From NCBI GenBank assembly GCA_963812605.1, contig CAWEWF010000001.1, positions 627,378 through 691,377 on the forward strand: 64,000 bases of DNA, written 5' to 3'. The stretch is from an uncultured Verrucomicrobiae bacterium (GTDB taxonomy: Bacteria; Verrucomicrobiota; Verrucomicrobiia; Palsa-1439). The notes beneath the pieces were generated by a model. The model did no database searches. It was not told where the DNA came from and worked only from the letters and a program-made list of their open reading frames with translations. Within the stretch, counting starts at the first letter, position 1, and each line of letters opens with the position of its first letter. Positions 3,080 through 38,437 of the stretch are shown here, one piece after another. A program made the position numbers and the translations under genes.

Positions 3080-3107
3080 TCAGGGTTTTTCCTAGAGTAC
3101 GACCAGC
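3080..3107 (-). promoter_or_regulatory. composite TAGGA-N5-TCCTA-type site
   Basis: Minus strand GCTGG TCGTA CTCTA GGA AAAAC CCTGA, about 65 bp upstream of ATG 3173. Confidence 0.5.
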
Positions 3108-3172
3108 AAAAAAGTGCGCCGTGCCGGCTTGTGGTTCGATTTATCGGATGCCAGATTGCGTCTGTGCATTCG

Positions 3173-5179
3173 ATGAAAGATCGAACTGGTTCCACTCGTT
3201 TCGCGGTTGTTGCCGTACTTTCCCTCGCCTTCGGTTTTCAGATCGCGTCGTCGCGCGCGCAGATGACGGACGTTCTGACTTATCACAACGACAACGCGCG
3301 GACGGGACAGGCCCTGCACGAGGAAGTGTTGAGGCCGGCCAATGTCAACACTAACCATTTCGGCAAGCTGTGGGTTCTTCCCACCGATGGCCTGGTGGAT
3401 GCCCAACCGCTGTACGCGGCCGGTGTTTTGATTCCGGGCAAGGGAATGCACAACGTGTTGGTCGTAGCCACCGAGCACGACAGCGTGTATGCGTTCGATG
3501 CGGACTGCACGAACATCCTCTGGCAGGTTTCGCTGCTGGGCGGCGGCGAAACCACTTCCGATGACCACGGCTGTGGCCAGGTAACACCGGAGATCGGCAT
3601 CACCGACACGCCGGTAATTGACCGGCAGCTTGGGACCAATGGCACGATCTTCGTCGTGGCGATGAGCAAGAGCGGGTCGAGCGCATATTTTCAGCGGATA
3701 CACGCGTTGGACCTCGCCACCGGGGCCGACCGTATTCCCGCCGTCACCGTCACCGCCAGTTACCCGGCACCGGCGACAATAGCAGTGGCGGCAATGTCAT
3801 CTTTGATCCCGCCAAATACAAAGAACGGCCCGGCCTGTTGCTGTTGAATGGCGTGATCTACACGGCATGGGCGTCGCATTGCGACGCCCGGCCCTACACG
3901 GGCTGGATCATGGGGTACGCTGAACAAACGCTGGCGCAAACCAGTGTGCTGAACGTCACCCCGAATGGCAATGAAGGCGCGATCTGGATGGCCGGCGACG
4001 GTTTGGCCGCCGATGCCAATGCCAACATTTATTTTCTGGATGCCAACGGCCTCTTAGACACAAGTTTCAACGCGAGCGGTTTCCCCACCAATGGCGATTA
4101 CGGCAACGCATTTATGAAGCTCTCCACGACCAGCAATGCGCTGGCGGTGGCTGATTATTTTGACATGTCCAACACCGTCGCGGAAAATAGTACGGACGAG
4201 GATCTGGGTTCCGGTGGCGAATTCTGTTGCCGGACATGCTCGACGCGCAAAATAATACGCGCCAGCTCGCGGTCGGAGCCGGCAAGGACCAGATCATCTA
4301 CCTTGTCGACCGGATGAATATGGGGAAGTTCAGTCCCAGCACGAACGCCATTTACCAGCAGGTCAACGGTGTGCTCGCTGGCAAGCAGTATTCTACGCCC
4401 GCCTACTTCGACGGCATCCTTTATTATGGCGCTGTCGGCGACCACATCAAAGCGCTCCCGTTCCAAAATGCCCGACTGGCGGCCGTATCATCGCAAACGC
4501 CCGGTACCTTCGCTTTCCCAGGCGCGACGCCGAGTATTTCGGCCAACGGCACATCCAACGGCATCGTGTGGGCCACGGAGAACAATACCACGGCGGTCTT
4601 GCACGCGTATAATGCGACCAATCTCGCCAACGAACTCTATAACAGCAGCCAGGCCGCCGGTAATCGCGATAACTTTGGCGTCGGCAACAAATTCATCACC
4701 CCAACGATCGCCAGCGCCCGCGTCTATGTCGGCACGACGAATGGTGTCGGCGTCTTCGGCCTGCTCGATCAGTCCACATTGACCCCGCTACAAACGTGGC
4801 GCAATAACCACTTTGGCAATCCGTCGAACGTCGGCGCGGGCGCCGACACCGCCAGCCCGGCGGAGACGGCGTGCCGAACCTGATCAAATACGCCCTCGGG
4901 TTGGATCCGTATACGCCCGCGGCCACCAGCCAGTTGCCGAGCGGAAGCATCCAGCCGGACGGTGGCCAGAACTATCTCACGCTGACAGCCAACTATGTCG
5001 CGCAGGCGCCGGATGTCACCTACGCAGTCGAGGTCTCCGGCGATCTCCGAAGCTGGACGTTCGGCCCGCCATTTACCGTGACCCTCACCAACACCGCGAC
5101 GCAGCTTACCGTGCGCGACAACGTACCCTTTGGCAGCGCGCCCATGCGCTTCATTCACCTACGGATCTCGGATCCGTAG
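3173..5179 (+). CDS. secreted PQQ-like beta-propeller protein with C-terminal Verrucomicrobia-type domain (frameshifts near 3765, 4220, 4862)
   Basis: Signal peptide then DVLTYHNDNARTG, VDAQPLY, DSVYAFDAD, PEIGITDTPVID, GAIWMAG, DEDLGSGG, KFITPTIA. Four overlapping ORFs join into one continuous protein. Confidence 0.75.
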
Positions 5180-5224
5180 CGGGATCGGCGCCGTCTTGAT
5201 TGAAGAACAGTTCGCCCCTGTAGG

Positions 5225-6319
5225 CTATTTCACCGGCTTGTCGCTCAAGAACACCGCGATGAACTTGAGCTCCGGAACATATTTGGCGATCACCGCCAGG
5301 CAGGCGGTCAACGGTGTCGCCAGCAACAGGCCGATCGGCCCCCATAGCCACGCCCAGAAGGCAATGGAGATGAGCATGGCCAGTTTCGAAATCCCAATGG
5401 TGCGGCCAAAAAAAATGGGTTCCAGGATCATTCCTACCAACGGCTCGAACACAACAAATATCCCGATAATAGCCAGGGGCTGTGTCCAGTTCGGTGACGT
5501 GGCCAAACTGACCGAGAGCGGAAGCGTCGCGGCAATCCAAATGCCGATGTAGGGAATGAACCGCAAGATCGCAATCGAGAAACCCCACAGCAACGCATAC
5601 GGCACGCCGAGGAAGAACAAACTCACCCCAATCGTTGTCGCCACACAAGCGTTGACGACTGATTGCGCGACGAGATACTGCCCGACGAGCTGGCCCGCTT
5701 CATCCAGCGCCTTGCTCGCCGAACTTCCTCGTTTGTCGCCCATCGACTGAATCATGCGAGCATGGAACTCGTCCCGTTCCAAGAGCATAAAAACCACCAG
5801 GACGATTACCAGCAGGATGTTAAAGAGCGATCCCAACACAGGTGAAACGATGGACAACAAGGAATGTGCCGTGTCATTTTGCACGGTCACCGGCACCGGT
5901 TGAGCACCTGATTTCTTGGGGGGCGTGTTGGTGGTTACGTCTCCAATCACTTCCTCCACCGTATCACGGGCCTTGGCCAGGGCCGTGCCTTTGCCGTCCC
6001 AGCGCAGGTCTTCGACCCGCTTCTTGATGTTTCCCTTGTAGGTCGGCAGTTTGTCGGCAAATTCTTTTACTTGTCCCGTGATCCCCCAGGCAATGACAAC
6101 GATCAGTGAAAGGGCCAGGAACATCACCAACACGACCGATAGGCTTCGCGGTAAACCAACTCGCTGAAAAGCCTTATCCACGGGAGCCAGGAGAAACGTG
6201 ATTAATACGGCCAGGGCAATCGGCACCGCGACCTCACGGGCCAGCGAGAGACAAACAACCACCAGCACCAGGGCGGCCAGAATGATGAGGGAAGATAGTT
6301 TTCGGGAAACGATTTGCAT
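5225..6319 (-). CDS. AI-2E family transporter
   Basis: PIALAVLITFLLAP, GVPYALLWG...LRFIPYIG, LEPIFFG, FWAWLWGPIGLLLATPLT signatures. Confidence 0.92.
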   Translation of the reverse strand: MQIVSRKLSSLIILAALVLVVVCLSLAREVAVPIALAVLITFLLAPVDKAFQRVGLPRSLSVVLVMFLALSLIVVIAWGITGQVKEFADKLPTYKGNIKKRVEDLRWDGKGTALAKARDTVEEVIGDVTTNTPPKKSGAQPVPVTVQNDTAHSLLSIVSPVLGSLFNILLVIVLVVFMLLERDEFHARMIQSMGDKRGSSASKALDEAGQLVGQYLVAQSVVNACVATTIGVSLFFLGVPYALLWGFSIAILRFIPYIGIWIAATLPLSVSLATSPNWTQPLAIIGIFVVFEPLVGMILEPIFFGRTIGISKLAMLISIAFWAWLWGPIGLLLATPLTACLAVIAKYVPELKFIAVFLSDKPVK

Positions 6320-6399
6320 TAGACGCTATTTCCGGGATTGCTCTTCTCCATATATTTCAATCTTCCACATTTTCTTATGGTAAAACAATTGGGCACACT

Positions 6400-8130
<1,731 letters not shown>

Positions 8131-8135
8131 CTCCT

Positions 8136-8226
8136 TAGGAAAACTGACTAGGCTGTGGCCAGCACTGTTCTGAGGGCGCAATCAGGTTGGCTGCCAATTG
8201 TTGCACCACAAGCGTTGTGTCACGAT
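8136..8226 (+). promoter_or_regulatory. TAGGA AAACT GACTA site plus sigma70-like promoter (TTGTTG-17-CACGAT)
   Basis: Motif at 8136-8150 (composite extension to 8163 on the minus strand); -35 at 8198, -10 at 8221, upstream of the BON gene. Confidence 0.55.
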
Positions 8227-8276: not shown

Positions 8277-8855
8277 ATGAAGGCAATTGTCCTAAGCTCA
8301 TTGATCGGAATTACCGGCTGCGCCATCGCGATAACAGTAACGGGGTGCGCCAGTACGCCGACCCACGAAAGCACCGGCGAGGTCATTGATGACAGTACGA
8401 TCACGGCAAAAATCAAGGCGAAATACGCTACGGACAAGGACGTCAGCGCAATGCAGGTGGGTGTTGAAACGTACAAGGGGGTCGTTCAATTGAGCGGCTT
8501 CGTTGACAACGATTACGCCAAGAAGAGAGCCGGTCAGTTGGCCAAGCAGGTGGCTGGAGTGACCCGTGTTGAAAACAATCTCATCATCAAGCCATTGTCC
8601 GGCAATGAGACGGTTCTTTCCGGAACCAATTCCGTTTCCGAGTACGAAGGCGAAGTGACCGCGGTTGATCCGACCAACAACACGATCACCGTCAAGAAGA
8701 TGCTCATCAGCCACACCTTCCAGAATGCCACCGGACTGGACCGTCTCGGGGTGCATGTCGGCGACCAGGTTAAAGTTTCCTATCAGGATAAAGACGGGCA
8801 GAATAGTGTTGTCCGTATCGATGAAGTGAAGCCGAAGGACGCTCCCGCACAATAA
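8277..8855 (+). CDS. BON-domain (OsmY-like) lipoprotein with C-terminal OB-fold (DUF5666-like) domain
   Basis: Lipobox VTGC, STGEVIDDSTITAKIK, VETYKGVVQLSGFV, VAGVTRVENNL. C-terminal GEVTAVD...VGDQVKVSY. RBS AAGGA. Confidence 0.88.
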   Translation: MKAIVLSSLIGITGCAIAITVTGCASTPTHESTGEVIDDSTITAKIKAKYATDKDVSAMQVGVETYKGVVQLSGFVDNDYAKKRAGQLAKQVAGVTRVENNLIIKPLSGNETVLSGTNSVSEYEGEVTAVDPTNNTITVKKMLISHTFQNATGLDRLGVHVGDQVKVSYQDKDGQNSVVRIDEVKPKDAPAQ

Positions 8856-8952: not shown

Positions 8953-11900
8953 GTGGTCTGGGAAACAGTTCAACAAGCATTCCGATTCTGGAACCCGCGC
9001 GGGGCCGCGCGGATTCCAGATCGGGGTGAGCGATCCAGCAAACCTGCCGATCCTCCCTTGCGGGCCGAACTCTTTAATCTCGACCAGCTTCGAGCCCATG
9101 CCAGCGAATTGGCGGGTCGCCATCAGATCGTTGAAAGTCATGGGCCCAGTAAGCTGCACCGCCGGCTGGCTGAGAACGAGGCCGTCCTGGTCGATGCCTA
9201 CGAAGTGGCGGCGGCAGCCGTGGCGGGCGGTCGCCGTGTCAACCTCGCAGTGGAATGGCTGCTGGACAACTTCTATCTCATCAAGGAGCAAATCACCATG
9301 GCGCGCCGGCATCTGCCACGCGCCTACAGCCGGCAATTGCCCCGATTGCAAAACGGGCCGCGGGCCGGCTATCCACGCGTGTACGACATCGCCCTGGAGT
9401 TGATTACCCACACGGATGGTCGCGTCGATGAGGAAAACCTGGCCACATTTGTCTCCGCCTACCAGAGTGTGGCGCCGCTGCGGCTCGGTGAATTGTGGGC
9501 GGTACCGATCATGCTTCGGCTGGCGTTGATTGAGAATATCCAGTGGGTGGCAGCCCACTTGGCCGGTCGGCGCCGCCAGCGTGAACTGGCGGGCGATTGG
9601 GCGGACCGTATGCTGGCTGTCGCCGAACGCGATCCCCGGCGTTTACCGGACCTTCTTGCCGACATGGCGCGGTCGGATCCTCCCTTTACAAGCCCGTTCG
9701 TCCAGGAATTCTGTGGCAAGCTGCAAGGGCAAAGTTCCGCGCTGGCGTTTGTGCTGGGATGGGTGGAGCACCGTCTCAGCGAAGAGGGCCTGAGTATGGA
9801 GCATCTGCTCCGTGCCGACAGCCAGTCATTAGCGGCCGACCAGGTTTCCATTGGTAACAGCATTGCGAGCCTGCGTTTCCTGGGAGCCATGGAATGGCGG
9901 GTGTTCATCGAGAAGATGAGCCTCACCGAACAGGTGCTGCGCCGTGACCCCGCCGGCGTCTATGCCAACATGACCTTCGAAACGCGCGATCGTTACCGTC
10001 ACTGCATTGAAGAGTTGGCCCACCATTCCCGCTCTACAGAACAGGAAGTCGCGAGCGCGGCCATTCAAATTGCCACGACAGCGGCTGACCGTGAGGGACC
10101 AACATCGCGAACGGCCCACGTGGGGTTCTATTTGGTCGATAAAGGTCGGCCGACCCTGGAACGCGCGATCCAGGCGCGGCAATCGGTCAAACAATTCATC
10201 GCGCGCTTCGCCCGCCGGTTCCCGTTATTCTGCTATCTGACGCCCATCCTGTTTCTCACCGTGGGAACAACTGCCTGGGTGATGATGTGTGTCTCGCGGT
10301 TCGAATTGAGCCCCTGGAGTTTTTGGTTTCTGACGGCTTTTACCTTCGTGGCGGTTTCGCAGACGGCGATTTCCGTGGTCAACTTGCTGGCAACATTTTT
10401 GATACCTCCCCATTCCCTGCCGCAATTGGATTTTTCTCGGGGCATACCGACGGAACAGAAGACGATGGTCGTTGTGCCAACGCTGTTAACCAGCGAGGAA
10501 GCGGTAGCACAACTGATTGAAGATCTTGAGGTCCGTTATCTCGGCAATCGCGATCCGAACCTGCTATTCGCATTGCTCACGGACTTCGCCGATGCCCCGG
10601 AAGAAAACCAGCCCACGGATGCGGAATTACTCGAGCTGGTCCGACACGGTATTCGCACGCTCAACGAAAAATACGCCGCGGAGAAGACAGCCGTTTTCCA
10701 CCTGTTCCATCGCCCCCGGGTCTACAACCCCCACGAACGCATCTGGATGGGCTACGAGCGCAAACGCGGCAAGCTCGAGCAGTTTAATACCCTTCTGCGC
10801 AGTGGTTCCCGCGAGCCGTTCTCCGAGATCATCGGTGATCTTTCGATACTTCCAACGATCCGCTACGTGATCACACTGGACACGGACACCCAGCTTCCTC
10901 GAGATACCGCCTATAAACTTGTCGGAACCATGGCGCATCCCTTGAACCGGCCGCAGATTGACCCGCAAACGGGCCGGGTCTTCGAGGGCTACGCGATCCT
11001 GCAACCTCGGGCGGTCGTCGGGCTGCTGGCCGCGAGCCGTTCCCATTTCTCGCGCCTGAGCGTGGGCGACGCGGGGATCGATCCTTATACCCATGAAGTA
11101 TCCGACGTCTACCAGGATATTTTCGGTGAGGGCTCCTATGTGGGCAAGGGGATTTATGACGTGGAAGCCTTTCACCGTTCCGTCGGCGGACGTTTTCCGG
11201 AAAACCTGATTCTCAGCCACGATCTGGTGGAGAGCGGTTACGCGCGCTCCGCGTTGCTCGGCAGCGTGGAATTGTTCGAGGACCATCCGTCGAGTTATCT
11301 GGTTGACGTTAGCCGGCGTCATCGCTGGATTCGCGGAGACTGGCAAATTGCCGGCTGGCTTCGTTCGCGCGCGCCGGCGGCTGATGGCAAGCGTCAGCCC
11401 AACGCGCTGACCCGGTTGGCGCGATGGAAGATCTTCGATAATCTGCGGCGGAGCCTCGTGCCGCCGGCGACGTTGCTGTTGCTATTTGTCGGTTGGGTGG
11501 TCGCGCCGCAACCGCGCGGATTTTGGACCTTGCTTGTCGTGGCGTTGACCGCCTTTCCCATGGTGGTGTCGGCACTTCTGGAAGGTCTGCGCAAACCTCC
11601 GGAACGGACGTGGCGAATTCACCTGGATGTCACTGCAAAATCCACAGCCCGGCAATTGGCGCTGGTGGGATTGGCGCTGGCCATGCTGCCCTATCGTGCC
11701 TTCATCAATTTTGACGCGATTCTCTGCTCCGGCGTGCGCATGTGGTTTACGCGACGCGGCCTGCTGCTCTGGCATACTCGTGATAACGCCCGCCGCAATG
11801 CGCGAGAGACGCTGGCGGAGTTTCACCAGGAAATCTGGATCACGCCAGCGTTGGGCTTGGCGGCGCTGGCGCTGTTTTGGACGACGCATCCGGAGGAGTT

Positions 11901-25347: not shown

Positions 25348-25430
25348 GTAAGCCTTCAACGCAAGCTTATCATTCCCTCGCAGTTCCCACAATAGCCGAT
25401 CCTGGTTATCGCATAAAGCAAAAACTGACC

Positions 25431-25528
25431 TAGGAACTGTTCCTAGGTCACCACCCGCACAAAAGTTATCGCTATTGCGCCGGCGCGGAGCGAAGCTTTC
25501 ACGGATTCCTTCCTAGGCCACAATCGTG
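25431..25528. promoter_or_regulatory. perfect TAGGA ACTGT TCCTA (25431) and ACGGA TTCCT TCCTA (25501)
   Basis: Lies between the divergent response regulator and ACT genes. The first site extends to the palindrome TGACCTAGGAAC-T-GTTCCTAGGTCA. Confidence 0.72.
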
Positions 25529-25613
25529 TGGTCGTCCGATTGCGGAACCTTGGCGGGCTGTGTTACATGGTCTGTAGATTTTGAATAATTGAACAGTTAC
25601 CAGAGAGGATGCC

Positions 25614-26105: not shown

Positions 26106-26318
26106 CATTCCTTCGCCGATAAACGGCGGGTAACAGGAAAGACTGCGCTCGCAGGGCGGGCGCGGGGAGGTTGTGTTTTGCTGGCAAACGTAAATCGGAT
26201 ATCTCGGCTCCCCGGACCACCTGCCGTCCGCATGTCTTTTGATTTGTATAAAGCGCTCCCGCGCCCTATGTTTACTCCGAAAGAAGGCGCAGGCGTGGCA
26301 AAGAATTCTAGACGGAAC

Positions 26319-29300: not shown

Positions 29301-29924
29301 GGCATCGGCTTCATGAGCGAATCCCTGGAAGATCGCCTCGCAGCCAAAGCGTTGCCCGAAGCGACGGCGCTGGCGGCAAAGGTCACCAAGCGCATCAAGG
29401 AAGCCGTCACACAAACGCGGGACCTGGCCAAAGGGCTGTTCCCCGTTGAATTGAAGACCCACGGCATCGCACCCGCTTTACAGAAGCTGGCGATCAATAC
29501 CGAAAAATTGTTCCGGATTACCTGTTCATTCAAGGGTGAAGCGTCCCTGCGGATTCGCAACGAGAGCGTGTCGCGCCATCTCTACCGGATTGCCCAGGAA
29601 GCCGTCTTCAACGCGGTGAAACACAGCCATGGAAAACACATCCGGATCCATCTTGACGAGGAGCGCGGTGCCATTCGGTTGACGATCGAGGACGATGGGG
29701 TCGGCATCGACACCCGCAAGGTGGGCGAGAGCGACATGGGGTTGGATATCATGCGCTACCGTGCCGGCGTGATCGACGCCAAATTGGACATTCGCCGGGG
29801 CCCGCAGGGCGGGACCACCGTGACGTGCATTGTTGAAAATGCCAATGGGAAAAAAGGGACTCATGAAAAGTTCAATCAAGCCAACAAAGGACAAAGGAAA
29901 ACAACGCGTCCTCATCGTCGATGA
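26319..29924 (+). CDS. CheB/CheR fusion with coiled coil, PAS domains and HisKA_3 histidine kinase
   Basis: CheB triad motifs GIGASAGG, VQHL, SGTATDG; CheR VWVPGCATGEE, ISCRNVLIY; NEELQSTNEEL repeats; H-box EQQRIGRDLHDGLGQ. Confidence 0.93.
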   Translation: MGKAFPIVGIGASAGGLEAFRQMLEKLPVDTGMGFVLVQHLDPTHQSQLTELLSRATRLPVIEARNHMVVKPNHIYVIPPNTSMGIIGHTLKVTPRAPGRSHNLPIDAFLESLAKQCGRRAIGVILSGTATDGAEGMKAIRAEGGITFAQDEKSAKYDGMPRAAAATGCVDFVASPGAIAKELAQISRHPYVNHARPEKTVEAPQEPGEDLEQIFRLLRSATGVDFTHYKPNTIRRRIQRRMAVRRLHDLKQYTRYLKDHPDEAEVLYEDLLISVTSFFRDAGSFGALKKKVFPRIVNGLRSDSAIRVWVPGCATGEEVYSLAILLLEYLGERAGHVPIQFFATDISERALAKARLGLFQGNIAADVSPARLRRFFTKVTGGYQVNKAVRELCIFAKQNVAKDPPFSSLDLISCRNVLIYLNPVLQKRVMPIFHYALKPNGFLLLGGSETTSGFENLFGPFDRKHRIYAKQAAAARPVVDFSVSDYPAGEPEAPRQSVVPERPAFDIQREADRMLLGRFAPASVLINEHMEILQFRGHTGPYLEAASGSASLNLLKMAREGLLMELRSAIHKARKKGVPIRHEGLRIKSNGETRSVNLEVVPIKSGMRERHFLVLFQETDQPAPSEAVVTKVRPIKTRNLEKTTARLEQELTATKDYMQSVVEDLEDANEELKAANEEIQSSNEELQSTNEELETAKEELQSTNEELTTVNEELQNRNVELGQLNNDLVNVLVSVNLPILILGPDLRVRRMTPAAEKVLHLQPGDIGRLVTDLRLPMDVPDLEEMIADSMDSLSVKAREVRTRDGHWYLLRIRPYRTTDNKIDGAVIKLLDIDELKRTLQETENARDFAQAIVETVREPLLVLNRQLRVQTANRTFQRVFHVTKEETEGKFIYHLGDKQWNIPALRELLENILPRNSQFTDFEVDHVFPKIGRRIMVLNARRLQRDGSDAHMILLAIEDVTERKKLEKAVLDISEAEQQRIGRDLHDGLGQHLTGIGFMSESLEDRLAAKALPEATALAAKVTKRIKEAVTQTRDLAKGLFPVELKTHGIAPALQKLAINTEKLFRITCSFKGEASLRIRNESVSRHLYRIAQEAVFNAVKHSHGKHIRIHLDEERGAIRLTIEDDGVGIDTRKVGESDMGLDIMRYRAGVIDAKLDIRRGPQGGTTVTCIVENANGKKGTHEKFNQANKGQRKTTRPHRR

Positions 29925-30552
29925 CCACGCGGTGCTGCGCGAAGGACTGGCGCTGGTGATCAATGCCCAGCCCGACCTGCAGGTATGTGGGGAAGCCGCC
30001 ACCGTGAGCGGCGGGTTGCAAGCCGTGGCCACAGCGCGGCCGGACATTGCGCTCATCGATCTTTCGTTGATGGGCGGCAGCGGGCTGGAGCTGGTCAAGG
30101 ACCTGAAGGCGCAACATCCCAACCTGCCCACGCTGGTGCTGTCGCTGCACGACGAGGCGCTCTACGCGGAACGCGTGCTGCGCGCTGGGGCCCGAGGGTA
30201 CATCATGAAGCGGGCGGCGACGACCGACCTGCTGCTGGCAATCCGCAAGATCCTGGATGGCGAGATTTATCTGAGCGAAACGATGGGGTCGGTGGTTGTC
30301 CGCCAGGCGCTCGGGGATCGGGAATCTCCAACCGGTGGCGGTCCGCTGGAACAGCTCAGCGATCGGGAACTGGAAGTGTTCCAACTTCTCGGGGAGGGGC
30401 ACAGTACGCGCGAGATTGCCGGGCAACTCAAGTTGAGCATAAAAACCATTTCGTGTTACCGGCAGAATATCCAGACCAAGCTGGAACTAAAAGATGCCGC
30501 GGCGCTGGTGCAGCGCGCCGTCCACTGGGCCGCGACCCTGCGGGCCGACTGA
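29863..30552 (+). CDS. NarL/FixJ-family response regulator
   Basis: LIVDDH, IDLSL, LSLHDE, LSDRELEVFQLL...SIKTISCYRQNI; overlaps the kinase 3' end. Confidence 0.94.
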   Translation: MKSSIKPTKDKGKQRVLIVDDHAVLREGLALVINAQPDLQVCGEAATVSGGLQAVATARPDIALIDLSLMGGSGLELVKDLKAQHPNLPTLVLSLHDEALYAERVLRAGARGYIMKRAATTDLLLAIRKILDGEIYLSETMGSVVVRQALGDRESPTGGGPLEQLSDRELEVFQLLGEGHSTREIAGQLKLSIKTISCYRQNIQTKLELKDAAALVQRAVHWAATLRAD

Positions 30553-30563: not shown

Positions 30564-30643
30564 CGGCAGTGGGGCCTAGGTTTTTCTCTCAGGGTGAATT
30601 AGGAATTCTTACCCATTGAAGTTCCCCGTTTGCGCCATATATT
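30564..30643 (+). promoter_or_regulatory. degenerate motif copies (TAGGT at 30577, TAGGA at 30600) plus sigma70-like TTGAAG-16-TATATT
   Basis: Upstream of the OB-fold gene at 30668; -35 at 30616, -10 at 30638. Confidence 0.5.
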
Positions 30644-30667: not shown

Positions 30668-31144
30668 ATGAAAAGATTTTTAGGAACCGCGGCAGCTCTG
30701 GCCGGGATGATGACCGCTGTGATTTGTAGGGCAAGCGGCCCGCTTGCCGTCGTTCATCGACGTGGCAGGCGGGGCCGCCTGCCCTACAATGCAGAAGCGT
30801 CTCGGCTTAAACTGATACACTACCTTCTGGCCGGGATGATAGCCGCCGGCGTGATTTTCAGCGCCTCCGGACAGGATCCAGCGCCGTCAGGGAAACTTTT
30901 CATTTTTAGCGGCGTCCTGCGCTCCATGGATAAGCAGGCCCGGACCGTTACCGTGGAGGCTTCGGCTTCCGCCGTCAGCCAGAAGTTTATTGTTCCAACC
31001 GATGCCGAGATTATCGTGAAGGACAAACCGAAGGGCGAACTCTCGGACCTAATGATTGGCGACGGAGTCCAGGTAAAATACACGGAAGACGACGGCGCTC
31101 CTGTGGCGCATCAGATCTCGATTCTCGGGCTGAAGAACCCGTAA
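30668..31144 (+). CDS. secreted/membrane small OB-fold protein (DUF5666/CusF-like fold)
   Basis: SGVLRSMDKQARTVTV...LSDLMIGDGVQVKY...AHQI; strong RBS GAGGAG. Confidence 0.72.
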   Translation: MKRFLGTAAALAGMMTAVICRASGPLAVVHRRGRRGRLPYNAEASRLKLIHYLLAGMIAAGVIFSASGQDPAPSGKLFIFSGVLRSMDKQARTVTVEASASAVSQKFIVPTDAEIIVKDKPKGELSDLMIGDGVQVKYTEDDGAPVAHQISILGLKNP

Positions 31145-31158: not shown

Positions 31159-31650
31159 TTACGCTGCCTCTTTGGCCGTACCCGCCTCCGCCAGTTCCTT
31201 CGTAGCCGATTCCCGCCAACTCCTGGCGGCCGCTAGGTCATGGATCAGGGCTTCCACTTCCAGGATATAGATGGCGCGGTTGTCATCGGTGGTCTTGAAA
31301 ACCACATAACTCAACTCGCGGTCGGAACGGAACGAGTAGCTATAAAGAATATTGATGCCCGCCTTGGCCAGTTTGTCATTGAGGAACTCGGGTAGCCCGG
31401 GTTTATCAGGTGTTTCCACCAGCACGACGGGATTGGACCGGCAGGAAAACCCCGCGGCTTGGAGGGCGCGCGTCGTGCGAAAGGCATCCTCGGTGACGAG
31501 TTTCACCACGGCATCCCCGCCGTCCCAATAAGAACTGGCGGCCAGGACCTCGGCCCCGCAGGAAACGGTGATGGCGATCAGTTTGCTCAGGAGTGACGGT
31601 TGGCTGGTTGTACGGACCGTGATTTCGATTTGTCGAGTGGCGCCGATCAT
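31159..31650 (-). CDS. tandem ACT-domain protein
   Basis: RQIEITVRT, KLVTED..RALQAAGF, DKPG...KLAKAGINILYSYS, YVVFKTTDDNRA; RBS AAGGAG. Confidence 0.78.
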   Translation of the reverse strand: MIGATRQIEITVRTTSQPSLLSKLIAITVSCGAEVLAASSYWDGGDAVVKLVTEDAFRTTRALQAAGFSCRSNPVVLVETPDKPGLPEFLNDKLAKAGINILYSYSFRSDRELSYVVFKTTDDNRAIYILEVEALIHDLAAARSWRESATKELAEAGTAKEAA

Positions 31651-31741
31651 GACAACTCCTTTTGTTATTGGCTATTCAATCACCTCAACGATCTGCGGGC
31701 AGTTTACGGCAAGGCGAGGGTCCGATGCAATCAGGTGACAG

Positions 31742-31826
31742 GCTGGTATTCAGGTAAGAAAACCACCCATTCTTCGGCTAGGAGTTTTCGGTAGCGACAG
31801 TGCGGGAAACATAGGATATCGTCCGA
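31742..31826 (+). promoter_or_regulatory. three motif copies (GCTGG..TAAGA AAACC ACCCA; TAGGA GTTTT CGGTA; TAGGA TATCG TCCGA)
   Basis: At 31742-31769, 31779-31793 and 31812-31826, between the divergent ACT and DUF2934 genes. Confidence 0.6.
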
Positions 31827-31912
31827 TGCAAGATTCGGGTCTTGCCCGACTGGTAACCGAAAGAGGTGTCCGCTATTCTTGCCGATGTTTGGAGATTGGA
31901 GGGAGAGTTATT

Positions 31913-32176
31913 ATGACGACAATCAACCGCCCGAGCGAAGAGCAGGTGCGAGTGCGCGCCTACCAAATCTACCTGGAACGCGGTGGCCAACACGGACATG
32001 ACGCCGACGATTGGCTGCAAGCCGAGTACGAGTTGATGCAATTGCCCATCCAGAAGATTGCCAAACTCAATACAGCCCGGCCAAAAGGAAAAGACAACCG
32101 GAAGCTGGCGCTTGTCAACCTGGTCCAAGCGGCCCTGCTCCTGGGCGCCGAAGCTCTCCCGCATTTCAAGGCATGA
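31913..32176 (+). CDS. DUF2934 domain protein
   Basis: EQVRVRAYQIYLERGGQHGHDADDWLQAEYEL signature. Confidence 0.88.
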   Translation: MTTINRPSEEQVRVRAYQIYLERGGQHGHDADDWLQAEYELMQLPIQKIAKLNTARPKGKDNRKLALVNLVQAALLLGAEALPHFKA

Positions 32177-32216: not shown

Positions 32217-32441
32217 TTAGACCCGCTTGGCTGATGTGACCAACAGCAGGACCCCGCCGATCACACAGACCGCGCCCACCACCGGTGGAAAATAGGCTTT
32301 GTGGGTCTTGTCCGCAGTGACCTGAATCGGGCCGGCGTCGATGACTTTGTCGCGGGTGCGATAAGTAACGACTCCCGCGTATGAAAATAGCAGGATGCCG
32401 ATGACGAGTAGAAGAATACCGAGGCTGCGTGATTGATTCAT
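32217..32441 (-). CDS. DUF3185-like small membrane protein
   Basis: TM - VTYRTRDKVIDAGPIQVTAD - FPPVVGAVCVIGG TM. Confidence 0.75.
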   Translation of the reverse strand: MNQSRSLGILLLVIGILLFSYAGVVTYRTRDKVIDAGPIQVTADKTHKAYFPPVVGAVCVIGGVLLLVTSAKRV

Positions 32442-32562
32442 GATTGGATCTCCCTTTTGAGTTTGCCTGCATTTGCCAACCCTACGGTCATTTGCTCTTG
32501 CACCTCTATTTATCTTTCACGTGGAGCTTATCACCGCTGGAACGCCTAACAATCGGGTGAAG

Positions 32563-32665
32563 GCTGGGCTTCTTCTAGGAGGTTCCCCTAAGAGGCTTAT
32601 GACATCGCCCTAGAGTAATACCGGTGTTCCCCCCAATTGTCATACAGCCGGGTGAGGTCTATCCT
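32563..32665. promoter_or_regulatory. composite site GCTGG GCTTC TTCTA GGA GGTTC CCCTA, second copy TATGA CATCG CCCTA, sigma70-like TTGTCA-17-TATCCT
   Basis: Sites at 32563-32590 and 32598-32612; -35 at 32637, -10 at 32660, upstream of csbD. Confidence 0.68.
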
Positions 32666-32690: not shown

Positions 32691-32909
32691 ATGAACGAAG
32701 ATCAAATCAAGGGAAACTGGAAGCAGTTCAAGGGCAAGGTGAAGGAAAAGTGGGGCAAGCTGACCGACGACGATCTCGAGGTCATCGAGGGTCGGGCGGA
32801 CCAGTTGGTCGGCAAACTGCAGGAGCGCTATGGAATTGCCAGGCAAGAGGCGGAAAAGCAATACCGGGAATTCATTGCTTCCTGCGACGAACACCGTAAG
32901 GCAGCGTAA
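32691..32909 (+). CDS. csbD: CsbD/YjbJ family general stress protein
   Basis: MNEDQIKGNWKQFKGKVKEKWGKLTDDDL...LVGKLQERYG; RBS AAGGAG. Confidence 0.93.
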   Translation: MNEDQIKGNWKQFKGKVKEKWGKLTDDDLEVIEGRADQLVGKLQERYGIARQEAEKQYREFIASCDEHRKAA

Positions 32910-33202: not shown

Positions 33203-33424
33203 TTATCGCTGCGGCTTGGCGGTGGGAGGCTGTCCACTCGAGCCCTTGGCATGGGCTGGCTTGCCGGCCATGAAGCGATTGCATCCGCTGTTGCCGGATA
33301 CGCGCAATTTGTAGGGGAACAGCTTTTCATCAATGCACAATCCCATCGTGGTGTTTTTGACAGAAGCTTTCGGCTCGATCTGCCACCATTTGCAGTCCTT
33401 GCACAATCCCCATTCGTTACTCAT
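33203..33424 (-). CDS. small four-cysteine protein (HiPIP-like Cys spacing)
   Basis: CKDCKWW...GLC...VSGNSGCNRF; RBS GGAGG; overlaps the stop of the upstream ACT gene. Confidence 0.72.
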   Translation of the reverse strand: MSNEWGLCKDCKWWQIEPKASVKNTTMGLCIDEKLFPYKLRVSGNSGCNRFMAGKPAHAKGSSGQPPTAKPQR

Positions 33425-33890
33425 GGTTTTCCTCCGGTTGATTGGTGTCGCCCGCCGGAACCAGTTCGCGGCGTGACCCCGGCGGGAGGTCCATCGCCTC
33501 GAGCACGGTGACTGCTTGCGAACTGTCGGTGGTTTTCAAAACCAGTACGGTGCCCTTGTCGGGCGAACAACAGGTATAGGCATCCAGCATCTCGACGCCG
33601 TTGGCGCGCAACTCGGTACACAGGCGGACGGCTGACACGCAGCGGTGCTTTTCTTCCATCACCACCACCCGATTCGCCTCGCACTCGAAGCCGGCCGCTT
33701 GCAAAATACGGATGATGCCACTGTCCTTTCCCGTCACGAGGAGCACCGCCGCGCGCTCGTGGTCACTATAGAAACGCCAGGCGCCGACGGCGGAAGACTG
33801 CGCCGCCAAAACCGCGAAGAGTTTCGCCAGTACTTCCAAATCGTTGGCGATATGCAACATCACCTCATTTCGCTCTTGAATCTCTCGCAT
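33417..33890 (-). CDS. tandem ACT-domain protein (divergent third paralogue)
   Basis: VLLVTG..IRILQAAGFEC, ELRANGVEMLDAYT, VLVLKTTDSSQA; RBS AAGGAG. Confidence 0.65.
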   Translation of the reverse strand: MREIQERNEVMLHIANDLEVLAKLFAVLAAQSSAVGAWRFYSDHERAAVLLVTGKDSGIIRILQAAGFECEANRVVVMEEKHRCVSAVRLCTELRANGVEMLDAYTCCSPDKGTVLVLKTTDSSQAVTVLEAMDLPPGSRRELVPAGDTNQPEENHE

Positions 33891-33992
33891 GTGATTTTCT
33901 CCTTCCGGCGTTTTGCGGTTGCTGGTCCATAAAAAGATCTCTTATGCTTGGAAGCGTATCCTTTACCCCGCTTTCCGACAATTGGCGCGGGG

Positions 33993-34204
33993 GCTGATTG
34001 CGATCTAGGAGCTTCTCCCATGAGGATGTTTGCTCAGTCGGACTTCACCAATGGGCTGTTGGTGTCCTTCCGGCCGCTTTTCAGTTCCTTGCGGGCTTTG
34101 CCCGGTCCGTTCTAGGATATTCTCCGAGTGGAACTGGGGGTTACATCCCAGACCGAAACTAGCACGCTGCCCAATTGCGGAGTTCGCAAAACCGGGGCTT
34201 AATT
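33993..34204. promoter_or_regulatory. two composite sites (TAGGA GCTTC TCCCA at 34006; TAGGA TATTC TCCGA at 34113) and a TTGCGG..TTAATT promoter-like pair
   Basis: GCTGA TTGCG ATCTA GGA at 33993; GCCCG GTCCG TTCTA GGA at 34100; CCAATTG at 34171. Confidence 0.6.
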
Positions 34205-35122: not shown

Positions 35123-35147
35123 CACGCCAACGAAAGGAGATCAGAAT

Positions 35148-35373: not shown

Positions 35374-35458
35374 TGGCAGAATAGGAGCACCTTGGAGACG
35401 CACAAACTTGCAAATCCACGAGCCGTGATTAGGCTTGGTGTGTGCTGGGAGCACTCTC

Positions 35459-37247
35459 ATGACCGGGCGAGTGATTCAACTTAACGAAAAAGAGCAATTC
35501 GTATTCATGACGACTCCGAAATCGAAGTTCTCCGCTTTCGCTTCCATGGGTGGAGAGCGGCGGAACGGAGACCGGCGTGAGGAAGGAGTGGGATTCCGGT
35601 GGATCCGTGAAGCTCTTCGCCGGACCCCGGAGGCGCTGGAGCCATTGCGGGATGGGAAAGGACTGCACCACTTGCTTTTCGAAAAGGTGCCGCACCCGCG
35701 CTTTGTCTGCGATGCCCGGACACTGCGGATCCTCGTCGTAAATGAGGCCGCCATCCATCGTTATGGGTATTCACGCGAGGAATTCCTTCGCATGAAGATT
35801 ACGGACGTTGGCGCGCCGGAATGTTTTGCTGCTTTCAAAGAATACTGCCGAACAATTCCGTCGTCTCGCTTCGTTGCCGCCGGGCCCGAAGACAGCGTCT
35901 TTCGCCATCGGAAGAAGGACGGCAAATTGATGGACATCGCGGTGGACGCGGCGTTGATTCCCCTGGGCCACCGCCGCATGTTCCTGCTGTTGGCGCAGGA
36001 CATCACCCGGCAACGGCGTGCGATGCAGCGTCTTCGCACGCAAGAGGCCACCACCCGCGCGTTGGCCGAGTCTTCCACACTGGCCGAGGCCGGTCCGAAA
36101 GTTTTCCACGCCATTTGCGAGAACCTGGGTTGTGACTGGGGCGAGTTGTGGAGAGTGGATTCCACGGCCCAGCGCATGCGTTGTACCCAGACCTGGAATC
36201 CGCAAGGTGGAGCGTTGCCGGGAATGCAACAATCCATTCGGAATGCGCTCTTTGCCCGGGGTGAGGGAATTGCCGGCGCGATTTGGGCCCGCAACAAGCC
36301 GCTCTGGATTGCAGACATCGATCAACATCCGGAACAGTTCCGTGCCGCGATCATGAAAAAATGCGGATTGCGGACCGTCTGCGCGTTCCCGATCCGGCTA
36401 AACAAGGAAGTATTGGGAGTGATCAGCATTTTTAAGCGTCAGGTATTGCCTCCCGATAAATATGTACTGAAGATGTTGAAGGACATTTGCAGCCAGATTG
36501 GGCAGGTAATGGGTCGGCGCCGCGCCGAACGCCGTTTGTTGCAGGTCACCGAGGACGAACAGCAGCGGATCGGGCAGGATCTACATGACGGCTTGTGCCA
36601 GCAACTGGCCGGCATTGCCTACATCGCGAGCACCTTGGAAAACGAGCTTGTCCAGGAATCTCCCACCCGAGCTGTGACGGCGGCGCGAATTGCCGAATTG
36701 TCCCGGGAAACCGCGATCCAGGCGCGCCAAATTGCGCGCGGGCTCAACCCGGTGAACCTGGGCACGACGGGCCTGATGGCGGCATTAAAGGAATTGGCCG
36801 GTTCCATACGGTCCTTGTTCTCCATTTCCTGCCCGGTTCGAATGTCCTCGTCGGGTCCTTGTGCCGGATCATGAAACGGCCGTGCATCTTTATCGGATTA
36901 CGCAAGAAGCGATTCACAACGGGATTGCTCATGGCAAGGCAACCGAGATCGTTGTCTCTCTGCGGCGGGAGCCCGGCAAGATCGTCCTCCGGGTTACGGA
37001 CAACGGCCGCGGCCTTCCCAGGACGACGACGAACAGTGACGGAATGGGTTTCGAGAACATGAACTATCGCGCACGAGCCATTGGCGCGCGCCTGCATTTC
37101 CAGGCCCGCCCGCGGGGCGGGACGGTCATGCTTTGTGAAGTGCCAAACCAAATGGGAGGTCAAGATGAAGAGCGAACGCGTAAAACAGCCAGAGGTCGGA
37201 GCCAAGCAGCAAATTCTCCTGGTGGACGATCACCCGGTGGTTTGTGA
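35459..37247 (+). CDS. cytoplasmic PAS-GAF-HisKA_3 histidine kinase (frameshift ~36832)
   Basis: PAS VNEAAIHRYGYSREEFL, GAF WGELW..GEGIAGAIW..AFPI, H-box EQQRIGQDLHDGLCQ; continues ISCRFECPRRVLVPDHETAVHLYRITQEA in the shifted frame. Start codon uncertain. Confidence 0.88.
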
Positions 37248-37956
37248 AGGGTTGATGCAACGGATCAACGCCGAACCGGACCTGGAGGTTTGTGGCCGGG
37301 CGCACGACGGTCATTCCGCGCTGGATGCCATTGAGAAACTGCGTCCGAATATCGCCGTGGTCGACATCGCCCTGGGTGCCGGCAGCGGTGTAGAATTGAT
37401 CAAGGACATCAAGGTGCGTTATCCGCATCTGCCGGCCCTCGTGCTCTCGATGCACGCCGAGGAACTTTACGCCGAACGGAGCCTGCACGCGGGCGCCAAG
37501 GGTTATGTCATGAAACAGGAAGAGACTTCTGTTCTCCTGCGAGCGATTCGCCAGGTACTGCGCGGCGAGGTCTATCTCAGCGAGAAGGTCAAAGACGGGA
37601 TCGTCAGGCGGCTCGGGGGCATTGTTCCGGATGGTCAGGTGATCTCGCTCATCAAACAATTGAGCGATCGTGAATTGGAAGTCTTCCAGTTGATCGGGGA
37701 TGGTTTTGCCACCCATGAAATCGCGGTCCGTCTCCACATCAGCATGAAGACCATTGCTTCGCATCGCGAGAACATCAAGCGCAAGCTGAATCTACGCGAC
37801 GGTGAACAACTGGCTCGCTTTGCGATTCACTGGTTGCGGTACCGCGATGCCGGTCCGAACGCCGCGGCTTCGGTCGTCGCGCCGCCGCTGCAACCGAAAC
37901 CGATCTCCCGCGTGAAATCGACCGCGCATCGCAAAACTGTTTCCGCAGGCCGGTAA
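37165..37956 (+). CDS. NarL/FixJ-family response regulator
   Basis: LLVDDHP, VDIAL, LSMHAE, LSDRELEVFQLI...SMKTIASHRENIKRKL. Confidence 0.94.
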   Translation: MKSERVKQPEVGAKQQILLVDDHPVVCEGLMQRINAEPDLEVCGRAHDGHSALDAIEKLRPNIAVVDIALGAGSGVELIKDIKVRYPHLPALVLSMHAEELYAERSLHAGAKGYVMKQEETSVLLRAIRQVLRGEVYLSEKVKDGIVRRLGGIVPDGQVISLIKQLSDRELEVFQLIGDGFATHEIAVRLHISMKTIASHRENIKRKLNLRDGEQLARFAIHWLRYRDAGPNAAASVVAPPLQPKPISRVKSTAHRKTVSAGR

Positions 37957-38409
37957 GAGCCGACTCGCAACGCGTTTTTCCAAAGAAGGAATGCCACATC
38001 CCTCGGCCGGGAAAGGCGAGGGAGTGCATCGGCCGACAGCCATGCTTGAAGGCACAATGCTTTTCGAGAAGCCGGGAGGTGAGGTTCCCGGGTTGTTTGG
38101 GGGGTGGGGTGCATTGTCGCGGTCAAGGGTGAGGAGGACTGCCGCCGATGCCACTGCGAGGGGAACAGTCTGGCGCGAGAAGTTGGAGGCGTTGCCGCCA
38201 TCCGGCTGCCGCAACGTTCCGGAGTCACCCCGTTGGTACAACCCCTTCCCCAGCACACTACAGCGCGAACCTTCTCGCGCCAGACTGGCTTAATTATTTC
38301 GCCACGAGAAACGCCATCTGAAAATATATTCATTCGATTACTGATCGCGATCCTCTCTGCGATGTCGCCAGTCTGCGACAGAAGCCCGCTTCCGGCAATT
38401 GGGCGCAAG

Positions 38410-38437
38410 ACCGATTCTCGGGTAGGAAAAGCTCCTG
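38410..38437 (+). promoter_or_regulatory. composite site ACCGA TTCTC GGGTA GGA AAAGC TCCTG
   Basis: Within the 0.9-kb gap 37957-38913; further TCCTA half-sites at 38513 and 38641. Confidence 0.55.

Follow-up and report, generated by a model that had tools for sequence, protein, structure and literature searches.

Regulatory genes and target genes of the island

The window, by which we mean the whole 64,000-nucleotide stretch of DNA that was analysed, holds one island with four regulators of the REC plus GerE layout and three or more HisKA_3 sensors or kinases. NarL/FixJ-type response regulators with these two domains are encoded at 24646–25392(−) and 37081–37956(+), with the fourth at 29830–30552(+), and a hybrid HisKA_3 kinase with a receiver and a GerE regulator is found at 38860–40590(+); all four regulators named in a preliminary description of this DNA are present, each with REC and GerE. 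The sensors comprise a MASE1-PAS-HisKA_3 histidine kinase (20981–23470(−)), a CheB-CheR-PAS-HisKA_3 histidine kinase (26178–29924(+)) and a PAS-GAF-HisKA_3 sensor protein (35435–36874(+)). The targets of the promoters described below include CsbD, YtxH, DUF948, Dps, BON, DUF892 and MscS genes and an SDR.

Architecture of the composite promoters

Written in the direction of the gene, the composite reads TAGGA-N5-TCCTAG-N4-AAAA-yCrG-N7/8-CCrA-TTGnnn-N16-18-TAnnnT, in which the yCrG block is the opposite strand of the GCTGR word reported in the preliminary description. A TAnnnT lies 16–18 nt after TTGnnn in 16 of 34 intergenic sites of this genome, against 0–2 at any other offset, and nAnnnT is found at that spacer in 30 of the 34; in the sites of relatives the counts were 24/40 and 35/40, these bases being outside the search model. 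Genome-wide, TTGACA and TACAAT are enriched hexamers upstream of genes. We take the composite to be a sigma-70-type promoter; relative to the predicted start, the main dyad has its centre near −67, with the block at −51 to −48. Using a matrix whose first seeds were chosen by eye among block-containing sites, and gene starts from a crude purpose-made caller, we found a gene start 52–147 nt past the CAAT side in 12 of the 17 best matches, and only three with one within 150 nt of the palindrome side. Seen from the palindrome, the target genes are found beyond the block, which reverses the direction originally proposed, and the element is not limited to 28 bp as had been thought, running on through the A-tract and the CCrATTG word to the −10 box.

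A canonical composite promoter at 33953–34020(−), directed at an ACT-like paralogue (33417–33890(−)), has its dyad at 34006–34020, the block AATCAG within 33994–34001 (overlapping the reported GCTGA, 33993–33997), CCAA at 33982–33985, the −35 box TTGTCG at 33976–33981 and the −10 box TACGCT at 33953–33958. Another, at 20890–20956(−) (dyad 20942–20956, block 20930–20937, CCGA 20918–20921, −35 TAGATT 20912–20917, −10 TACAAT 20890–20895), has as target a gene with no Pfam match (20258–20857(−)). Two composites face each other: one of a type shorter by 1 nt, at 32525–32590(−) (dyad 32576–32590, block 32564–32571, CCGATTG about 32550–32556, −10 TAAGCT 32525–32530), is directed at a small membrane protein gene (32217–32441(−)), and the other, at 32598–32665(+) (dyad 32598–32612, block 32617–32624, CCAA 32633–32636, −35 TTGTCA 32637–32642, −10 TATCCT 32660–32665), at a CsbD-like gene (32691–32909(+)). 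The site reported on the minus strand as ending at 23662 belongs to a composite at 23635–23701(+) (dyad 23635–23649, block 23654–23661, CCCA 23670–23673, −35 TTGAAC 23674–23679, −10 TAAAAT 23696–23701), whose target is a DUF5666 gene (23760–24155(+)). Upstream of the DUF948 gene (18517–18939(−)), which is followed by YtxH (18190–18480(−)), lies a composite with one extra base ahead of the −35 box, for which the coordinates were read off by hand (18962–19028(−); dyad 19014–19028, TCAGC 19001–19005, TTGCGC 18984–18989, TAAACT 18962–18967).

Weaker or altered versions are also present. At 31701–31769(−) a weak dyad (31755–31769) is combined with a block at 31743–31750, CTGA at 31731–31734, the −35 box TTGCAT (31725–31730) and the −10 box TAAACT (31701–31706), the target being an ACT-like gene (31159–31650(−)); at 31812–31879(+) a weaker composite (dyad 31812–31826, block AGATTCGG 31831–31838, −10 TATTCT 31874–31879) has a DUF2934 gene (31913–32176(+)) as target. 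The composite at 38370–38437(−) (dyad 38423–38437, block AGAATCGG 38411–38418, corresponding to the reported ACCGA at 38410, CCAA 38399–38402, −35 TTGCCG 38393–38398) has a weak −10 box, CAGACT (38370–38375), and only a candidate target, an ORF with no Pfam match (37792–38256(−)). At 30577–30643(+), upstream of its target at 30836–31144(+), the distal dyad (30577–30591) is degenerate and a perfect TAGGA lies inside the block (30596–30603), followed by TTGAAG (30616–30621) and TATATT (30638–30643) as −35 and −10 boxes; this layout is kept in genome G006. Ahead of the ACT-like gene 25614–26105(+) there is a weak composite at 25501–25545(+) (dyad 25501–25515, block ACAATCGT 25520–25527, CCGATTG 25536–25542). 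A perfect extended palindrome with no second unit, ACCTAGGAACTGTTCCTAGGT (25428–25448), starts 36 nt upstream of the regulator gene start codon at 25392, its core dyad beginning at 25431, 39 nt from that codon.

Four of the reported sites fit the promoter model differently. For those at 6427(−) and 8163(−), the placement given by the model differs in strand or in register. The first falls in the promoter of an AI-2E transporter gene (5225–6319(−)) at 6360–6427(−) (CCAA 6389–6392, −35 TTGTTT 6383–6388), where the TAGGA once taken as the main one (6410–6414) lands in the proximal unit and the distal position (6413–6427) is degenerate. The second falls in the promoter of a BON-domain gene (8277–8855(+)) at 8136–8226(+), with an extra dyad at 8136–8150, block GCAATCAG at 8178–8185, CCAA at 8194–8197, the −35 box TTGTTG at 8198–8203 and a degenerate distal position (8159–8173) that contains the reported GCTGG. 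The sites at 3107(−) and 23562(+) lack CCrATTG at the usual distance and are therefore non-canonical: in our orientation they correspond to TCCTA and CCAGC at a 13-bp offset at 3080–3107(+), upstream of 3173–3847(+), and to a perfect dyad (23575–23589) with the block TCAGC (reported as GCTGA, 23562–23566) at 23562–23589(−), which points at the MASE1-PAS-HisKA_3 kinase gene. The latter site stands face to face with the 23635–23701 promoter.

Enrichment and conservation of the block

All 11 sites cited in the preliminary description match the letters given there, and GCTGR-N7-CTAGGA is matched exactly at five places in the window, where chance predicts 0.03; 0 of 100 shuffles reached five. In a palindrome set picked blind to the block (196 intergenic TAGGA-N5-TCCTA sites with ≤2 mismatches, or 392 orientations), 20 of 392 orientations have [GCA]C[TC]G[AG] beginning at offset −13, compared with 0–10 (about 5) at each of the other 40 offsets; with ≤1 mismatch, the word is at −13 in 9/86 orientations versus 0–5 elsewhere. 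Look-alikes in coding regions gave no peak at offset −13 (12/686 versus 3–22 at other offsets). The proposal that such a word lies at a fixed 13 bp from the palindrome is borne out, C-Y-G-R being there far above chance. The palindromes carrying the block are a subset, 9 of the 43 intergenic sites with ≤1 mismatch, and about five of these 43 are tRNA T-arms. After site selection with the block columns masked (33 sites of this genome and 9 of G006), the y, C, r and G of the block still hold 0.77, 0.78, 0.45 and 0.86 bits; the position of the first G in GCTGR is uninformative (−0.02 bits).

Among 40 other genomes of the family, 23 contain sites recognised by the model, and the consensus of the sites from relatives (40 sites) is TAGGAnnwTyTCCTAGgnnArAATCrGnnnTyynnCCrATTGc; since the model contains the block, the information content of these sites at the block is circular. 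When a scan was run with the second half-site left unspecified, the half-site still appeared in matches from Verrucomicrobia-titled records. The G006 promoter orthologous to that at 33953–34020(−) has TTAGG in place of TCAGC at the block.

A candidate second dyad next to the −35 box

In the 40 sites of relatives the block consensus, AATCrG, mirrors a CyGATT located 7–8 nt downstream. On these letters, the block is most readily explained as one arm, the left, of a second, weaker dyad, AATCrG-N7/8-CyGATT, centred near −43.5 and touching the −35 box. When the symmetric main-dyad matrix was slid along 42 aligned promoters, its second-best match was at +23 (mean −4.5, 60% above the background 95th percentile). 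The proximal pattern is seldom found alone, as 13 of its 17 intergenic matches have a distal dyad (≤4 mismatches) at the fixed distance; distal dyads are also found alone. Counting against this reading, the distance between centres, 23–23.5 bp, does not correspond to an integral number of helical turns.

The block consensus TCAG (C 0.82, A 0.60) is unlike TAGG, which makes it less than assured that one protein reads both units, and a tandem form of the earlier heteromer idea would have one paralogue on the TAGG-type dyad and another on the TCrG-type dyad, giving combinatorial control. RcsB, a regulator of the GerE type, can read its box as a homo- or heterodimer; its heterodimers share one box, whereas here there are two adjacent boxes, and no RcsA-like partner was identified in this analysis. 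In favour of two proteins, the proximal unit keeps its own consensus, TCAG/TCGG, rather than a scattered decay from TAGG, the island offers several regulators and sensors, and in an alignment of three of the four regulators the recognition helix differs after the conserved KT. We nonetheless consider it unlikely: the proximal pattern is nearly always accompanied by the distal dyad, TCGGA/TCCGA are also seen as variants inside main dyads, and LiaR, a single protein, is described as binding a secondary site unlike its consensus (PMC4482077).

The preliminary description had parsed the element as two 15-mers of 5-N5-5 geometry sharing a TA (TAGrn-N5-yCrGn in the gene direction), with dimers 13 bp apart. 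The distance from block to palindrome is indeed invariant, while the spacer to CCrATTG differs by 1 nt (an alignment gap in 12/40 sites of relatives and 3/24 of this genome); this rigid block and floating proximal spacer (N7 versus N8) run contrary to the expectation for a rigid second dimer site and fit the earlier coupling better. GG or GA often follows TCCTA, giving a TAGG/TAGA left arm (G 0.62–0.65 at the first position), 6401–6414 in that register reads TAGGA-N5-TCAGG, and the matrix has a secondary peak at +13 (mean −6.9; 40% of the 42 promoters exceed the 95th percentile of background, compared with 17% at −13, the mirror offset). That peak is nevertheless below the one at +23 and falls to 17% when compared with background 15-mers also starting with TA; the block arm at +13 stays at background level (5%), whereas in the opposite polarity 38% of sites exceed the 95th percentile. 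Moreover, the bases needed only by the overlapping unit, −59 to −57, hold 0.30, 0.15 and 0.01 bits, half-site centres 3 bp apart would probably make two helix-turn-helix domains clash, and the conserved A-tract and CCrA are left unexplained. Of the two-unit claim, what stands is a second, weaker element whose distance to the palindrome is fixed; the overlap by TA fits less well, and we regard it as very improbable.

CCrA is always fused to TTG and TT is common to the −35 box, hence part of the symmetry could come from that box. The A-tract, at −55 to −52, falls in the region of UP-element subsites, and a dyad over the −35 box could equally block polymerase, yet it is highly doubtful that the block and CCrA are mere polymerase contacts (an UP-like A-tract with an extended −35) or an unrelated repressor operator, given that the words are nearly confined to positions downstream of the TAGGA dyad, that yCrG contains G/C and is sequence-specific, and that CAATTG, unlike TTGACA and TACAAT, showed no enrichment in upstream regions genome-wide (1.13x), which means that the words are not general promoter elements.

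Comparison with known systems and proposed mechanism

Regulators such as DosR and LiaR are established examples of a two-part layout comparable to the second-dyad reading. UhpA at uhpT and BvgA at fha, which are NarL-family activators, use a strong, high-affinity upstream inverted repeat and weaker promoter-proximal sites reaching −35; BvgA dimers occupy three sites at a spacing of about 22 bp, and its heptads, TTTCCTA, resemble the TTTCCTA arm found here. DevR/DosR of Mycobacterium tuberculosis is, as in our island, a NarL-family regulator with HisKA_3 (GAF/PAS) kinases, and it is described as controlling stress or dormancy proteins through a conserved primary box and, next to it in tandem, a secondary box of poor conservation that adjoins −35 and is bound cooperatively (PMC3177182). 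At tgs1 the centres of its boxes lie at −63.5 and −42.5, 21 bp apart (PMC3177182), against about −67 and −43.5, 23–23.5 bp apart, here; the DevR box is of 18 bp with essential G5/C7 instead of TAGGA-N5-TCCTA, and the secondary unit described here, in another phylum, has a clear consensus of its own. LiaR of Enterococcus faecalis and VraR, also of the NarL/FixJ family, have extended sites for an activated tetramer, in which a consensus is joined by a secondary site, that of LiaR lacking sequence likeness to the consensus; the four LiaR reading heads span about 42 nt, close to the 39 nt (−74 to −36) of our four blocks, and only three bind firmly at one promoter (PMC4482077), a picture that would suit a rigid unit of three blocks and a floating fourth. 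The consensus sequences are not alike, and LiaR/VraR serve a Firmicutes envelope-stress regulon (PMC4482077) rather than a general-stress-like set.

We think it somewhat probable that the GCTGR word is part of an oriented, activator-dependent promoter of ~70 bp, in which a strong distal dyad, cTAGGA-N5-TCCTAg, and a weak proximal one are occupied by regulator dimers or a tetramer that recruits polymerase. The blocks, how they are spaced and oriented toward genes, the −35 and −10 signals, the conservation in relatives and the adjoining regulator and kinase genes are directly visible. The binding protein, the cooperativity, the activation, rather than repression, and the transcription start we infer: a phosphorylated NarL/FixJ-type regulator of the island would bind the strong distal dyad as a dimer and assist another dimer, or the remaining half of a tetramer, in occupying the weak proximal site, from which RNA polymerase would be recruited to a promoter whose −35 box is poor. 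The candidate site is best read as binding more than one dimer. The targets are genes of general-stress type, located beside four NarL-type regulators and HisKA_3 kinases, and the best reading is that, in these stress-gene promoters, a second, weaker putative regulator site occupies the interval from the palindrome to the −35 box.

The main dyad and the GCTGR word

The preliminary description had combined a palindrome, TAGGA-N5-TCCTA (here the main or distal dyad), with a neighboring word, GCTGR, and all 11 sites that it cited carry the sequences stated. Allowing two mismatches at most, we counted 20 main dyads in the window against 9.3 expected, and at least 20 were reached in none of 100 shuffles. 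With no more than one mismatch there are 46 matches genome-wide, 10 of which fall inside the 64-kb window. Our own gene caller placed 43 of these 46 in non-coding DNA, ~5 of the 43 being tRNA T-arms as judged by eye. The main dyad is therefore what an operator of the NarL/FixJ family should look like, an inverted repeat with its arms about one helical turn apart in intergenic DNA.

The window comes from the end of contig C1; the assembly (the source genome, G000) comprises 15 contigs and 4.17 Mb. A second cluster of dyads and of composite promoters, which join the main dyad to a weaker second unit, lies outside the window at ~95–138 kb of contig C6, among genes for BON, YtxH, DUF892, MscS, SDR and PAS-HisKA_3 proteins and two GerE genes. 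Distal dyads also stand alone, e.g., at 25431, 34113 and 35359. A perfect 21-bp palindrome, ACCTAGGAACTGTTCCTAGGT, is located at 25428–25448, 36 nt upstream of the minus-strand regulator gene at 24646–25392. It lacks a second unit and may function in autoregulation or as an upstream site for the plus-strand 25614 promoter ~70 bp away.

The window has five copies of the combination GCTGR-N7-CTAGGA, where 0.03 would be expected, and none of 100 shuffles had as many. We then took 196 intergenic palindromes with up to two mismatches, picked regardless of the word, and counted the pattern [GCA]C[TC]G[AG] in both orientations (392 in total) at each offset from −45 to −5. The word stood at −13 in 20 of the 392 orientations, compared with 0–10 (mean ~5) at each of the 40 other offsets; for palindromes with one mismatch at most the figures were 9 of 86 at −13 and 0–5 elsewhere. 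Among 343 look-alikes in coding DNA (686 orientations) there was no peak at −13, with 12 occurrences there and 3–22 at the other offsets. The peak in the intergenic palindromes indicates that the word is genuine and kept at a single precise distance, and that only a minority of the palindromes carry it.

Direction and extent of the promoter

The cited sites share a further block, CAATnGG, on the far side of the word at 7 nt, or in some cases 6. From 14 sites bearing CAATnGG we built a 47-column matrix, which recovered more sites genome-wide; its 17 best matches are all intergenic. Beyond the CAAT side and pointing away from it, a gene starts at 52–147 nt in 12 of the 17, at 235–280 nt in two and at >2 kb in three, while on the palindrome side only three have a gene start <150 nt away. 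Because the gene starts lie mostly beyond the CAAT side, transcription would run opposite to the orientation first proposed, and the gene arrangement around these 17 matches rules that orientation out. The extent given in the preliminary description had to be abandoned as well, as the element is longer and runs on to CCnATTG and a −10 box, reading TAGGA-N5-TCCTAG...yCrG...CCnATTG in the direction of the gene.

In 16 of 34 intergenic sites of G000 (own sites), TAnnnT follows TTGnnn after 16–18 nt, compared with 0–2 sites at each other offset from 0 to 59, and the looser nAnnnT occupies this spacing in 30 of the 34; the TAnnnT bases lay outside the search matrix. The sigma-70-type arrangement of TTGnnn, 16–18 nt and TAnnnT is thus present in the own sites, as it is in relatives. 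The hexamers enriched upstream of G000 genes are TTGACA and TACAAT/TATAAT. With 1391 copies in the genome, CAATTG is only 1.13-fold enriched there, which led us to reject it both as a repeat spread over the genome and as a promoter word of general use. Since the former hexamers are enriched but CAATTG is not, CCnA-TTGnnn is predicted to contain the weak −35 hexamer of a sigma-70-type promoter.

Other assignments were considered and rejected. A −10 box at CCnATTG would put the palindrome at −41.5, a reading that was dropped once TAnnnT turned up 16–18 nt downstream. CCGATAG resembles the sigma-28 word GCCGATAA, but the spacing of the upstream TAAA is wrong for a sigma-28 promoter and the targets are not flagellar. 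A sigma-54 promoter fails because GG and GC are not 12 nt apart in either orientation.

Positions are hereafter numbered from a predicted start, with the first T of TTG at −35; the spacer is taken as 17 nt and the start as lying 7 nt past the −10 box. On this numbering the palindrome spans −74 to −60 (center −67) and the GCTGR word −51 to −47. Conserved blocks upstream of a −35 hexamer that retains only TTG fit an activator.

In a masked rescan we hid the columns between CAATnGG and the palindrome while the genome sites were selected, and obtained 33 own intergenic sites scoring ≥15 plus nine from the syntenic island of a relative, G006. In this masked set A is preferred from −55 to −52 (0.49, 0.23, 0.85 and 0.52 bits), followed by T/C at −51 (0.77 bits), C at −50 (0.78), A/G at −49 (0.45) and G at −48 (0.86), and no base is preferred at −47 (−0.02 bits). 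The C-T-G-(A/G) part of the proposed word therefore remains informative under masking while its first G does not. A logo with no information at these positions would have refuted the preliminary description, so that, the first G aside, the observation passes that check; as a whole it is partly confirmed.

Conservation among relatives

We built a sequence-only covariance model from 24 own sites; the alignment left out C5 386814, C5 35305, C2 49165 and C14 308702, which are low-quality matrix matches, and also L153, which did not align properly. Of 40 further genomes in the family, 23 had matches to the model at E ≤0.1, and G000 had 30 matches. The 40 distinct sites from 22 other genomes have the consensus TAGGAnnwTyTCCTAGgnnArAATCrGnnnTyynnCCrATTGc. 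Within the word T reaches 0.88, C 0.82, A 0.60 with G 0.33, and G 0.97, and the preceding AA completes AATCrG; since the word is part of the model used to find these sites, the information at the word is circular. Independently of the model, TAnnnT lies at the 16–18-nt spacing in 24 of the 40 relatives' sites, against 0–2 elsewhere, and nAnnnT in 35.

We also scanned GTDB genomes with CAATNGG-N8-CYGR-N7-CTAGGA and inspected 80 loci among the matches listed, most of which are chance matches. Among the matches listed, the second half-site, which the pattern leaves unspecified, was found only in loci titled Verrucomicrobia and in one titled Nitrospirota, and the full composites came from records titled Verrucomicrobia or Udaeobacter. 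The Nitrospirota-titled locus, L067, carries a composite nearly identical to those of L042 and L066 (Verrucomicrobia/Udaeobacter records) among the matches listed, and its contig may be mis-binned. The sequencing runs listed as containing the stretch are four soil-metagenome DNA runs from one study, with no RNA run among them. These runs and the titles of the records with full composites point to a soil verrucomicrobium as the probable source organism.

The partner of the word

The preliminary description had parsed the element as a 28-bp operator of two 15-mers that overlap by TA at a 13-bp offset. When we slid the symmetric matrix of the main dyad along 42 promoters, two secondary peaks emerged, at +13 and +23. 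At +13 the mean score was −6.9 and 40% of the sites exceeded the 95th percentile of the background, compared with a mean of −4.5, a median of −2.7 and 60% of the sites at +23, to which offset +24 adds 26%. If the background is restricted to 15-mers beginning with TA, its 95th percentile is passed by only 17% of the +13 units. As an arm of the +13 unit the word scores like background (5%); read with reversed polarity, as a left arm of TAGGA type from −51, it passes the 95th percentile in 38% of the sites. The overlapping 15-mer alone requires the next three bases after TCCTA, and these hold 0.30, 0.15 and 0.01 bits.

The alternative partner lies downstream, where AATCrG is mirrored by CyGATT after 7–8 nt. 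Together they form a second dyad (the proximal unit), with its axis at about −43.5 and 23–23.5 bp, or ~2.2 helical turns, from the first. This proximal pattern has 17 intergenic matches in G000, 13 of which accompany a distal dyad (≤4 mismatches) at a fixed distance; as the proximal pattern occurs mostly with a distal dyad and distal dyads also occur alone, the weak unit appears to depend on the strong one. At 30596–30603 of the window, and likewise at the corresponding site in G006, the word reads as a perfect TAGGA and the distal dyad is degenerate. In an orthologous G006 promoter TTAGG takes the place of the window's TCAGC.

The spacing speaks for the overlapping parse. The word is fixed relative to the palindrome, with no shoulder at −12 or −14 in the offset count, and length varies only between the word and CCrATTG, where 12 of the 40 relatives' sites have an alignment gap; among the 24 own sites, three show the gap and one more seems, by eye, to be shifted. 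CCrA directly adjoins TTG in every case. A rigid word distance together with a floating CCrATTG is the opposite of what a rigid second dimer predicts, which argues for the original parse. Both sets of observations would be reconciled by a tetramer with a loosely placed fourth head, as proposed for LiaR at liaFSR. As a whole, the interpretation given in the preliminary description is partly supported.

Regulators, kinases and predicted targets

By domain match, four REC+GerE regulator genes lie beside the sites, at 24646–25392 on the minus strand and, on the plus strand, at 29830–30552 (the fourth regulator), 37081–37956 and 38860–40590, the last a hybrid. They are accompanied by three HisKA_3 sensors, one with MASE1 and PAS (20981–23470, minus), a CheB-CheR-PAS fusion (26178–29924, plus) and one with PAS and GAF (35435–36874, plus), a gene context that suits a NarL/FixJ operator. 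In an alignment of three regulators of this island, identity to the first is 45–47% and the recognition helix differs among them; GerE matches number 11 in the whole genome. The regulator gene at 29830–30552, should its TTG start at 29830 be real, overlaps the end of the kinase gene at 26178–29924 by ~95 nt in another frame.

The genes downstream of the composites encode CsbD, YtxH, DUF948, Dps/ferritin, two BON proteins, DUF892, DUF2934, an MscS-type channel, an SDR, ACT-like paralogues, an AI-2E transporter, further kinases and an ECF sigma factor, and are of general-stress type. Two facing composites at 23562–23701 point one to the kinase gene at 20981–23470 (minus) and the other to a DUF5666 gene at 23760–24155 (plus), so that the 5' ends of the two transcripts, as predicted, would overlap.

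Between the cited AI-2E and BON promoters lies a tract at 6441–8130 that begins with a run of ~45 G and continues for ~1.7 kb nearly without C (18 C in 6441–8135, none in 7200–8130). With all C read as T in both sequences, 7260–8130 matches the 3' part of the MASE1-PAS-HisKA_3 kinase orthologue of G006 (70% over 672 nt, E 4e-78), and also G000 paralogues. The tract looks like a kinase gene in which every sense-strand C is read as T, and the loss may stem from an artefact of sequencing or assembly or from strand-specific C-to-T hypermutation. Immediately beyond the BON gene promoter, on its downstream side, a region resembling cyclic-beta-1,2-glucan synthase (8953–17526) comprises a GT2-like ORF of 1207 aa followed by one of 1603 aa with GH94 domains. 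An AcrB-type transporter (43062–46203) is split by a frameshift or sequencing error into overlapping ORFs at 43062–45089 (profile positions 2–654) and 45073–46203 (663–1019).

Comparison with known systems

The closest described design, by analogy, is the DevR/DosR regulon. In the passages of PMC3177182 that treat its promoters, every promoter of the regulon has tandem boxes, occupancy of a conserved box brings about cooperative binding at neighbors that are poorly conserved, and the tgs1 Dev boxes are centered at −63.5 and −42.5. Our promoters likewise have at least two tandem units, one conserved and one weak, and their proximal center at about −43.5 from the predicted start resembles the −42.5 box by the −35 hexamer in those passages. 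The Dev boxes are ~21 bp apart, in the same helical phase, whereas the dyads described here are 23–23.5 bp apart. The operator sequence also differs, not being a Dev box as these are presented in the same passages (PMC3177182). The LiaR tetramer has, in the sections of PMC4482077 on its binding site, four reading heads that cover ~42 nt, comprising a consensus and an adjoining secondary site without discernible likeness to it. The four conserved blocks that we observed, from −74 to −36 (39 nt), resemble the four contact blocks in ~42–44 nt of the extended LiaR/VraR site as outlined there. The promoter would thus work like those of the DevR/DosR and LiaR systems, yet with a different operator. 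A literature search on general stress and response regulators in Verrucomicrobia found nothing on this system among the papers listed.

A more far-reaching reading, which we consider improbable, is that the two dyads are read by two paralogous NarL-type regulators, one TAGG-type and one TCrG-type, that the promoter is an AND gate over several HisKA_3 sensors, and that this gate, not an alternative sigma factor, is the general-stress switch of soil Verrucomicrobia.

The mechanism is ordinary for NarL-family activators; the finding is of value for annotating regulons in a phylum that is unstudied, rather than for any new mechanism. The corrected direction and extent of the operator change the predicted target genes. 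Our results yield a testable promoter grammar of a strong distal dyad, a weak proximal unit, a weak −35 hexamer and a −10 box, which ~30 sites of the source genome fit and which covers a general-stress-like regulon of uncultured soil Verrucomicrobia, organisms whose transcription control is almost unstudied.
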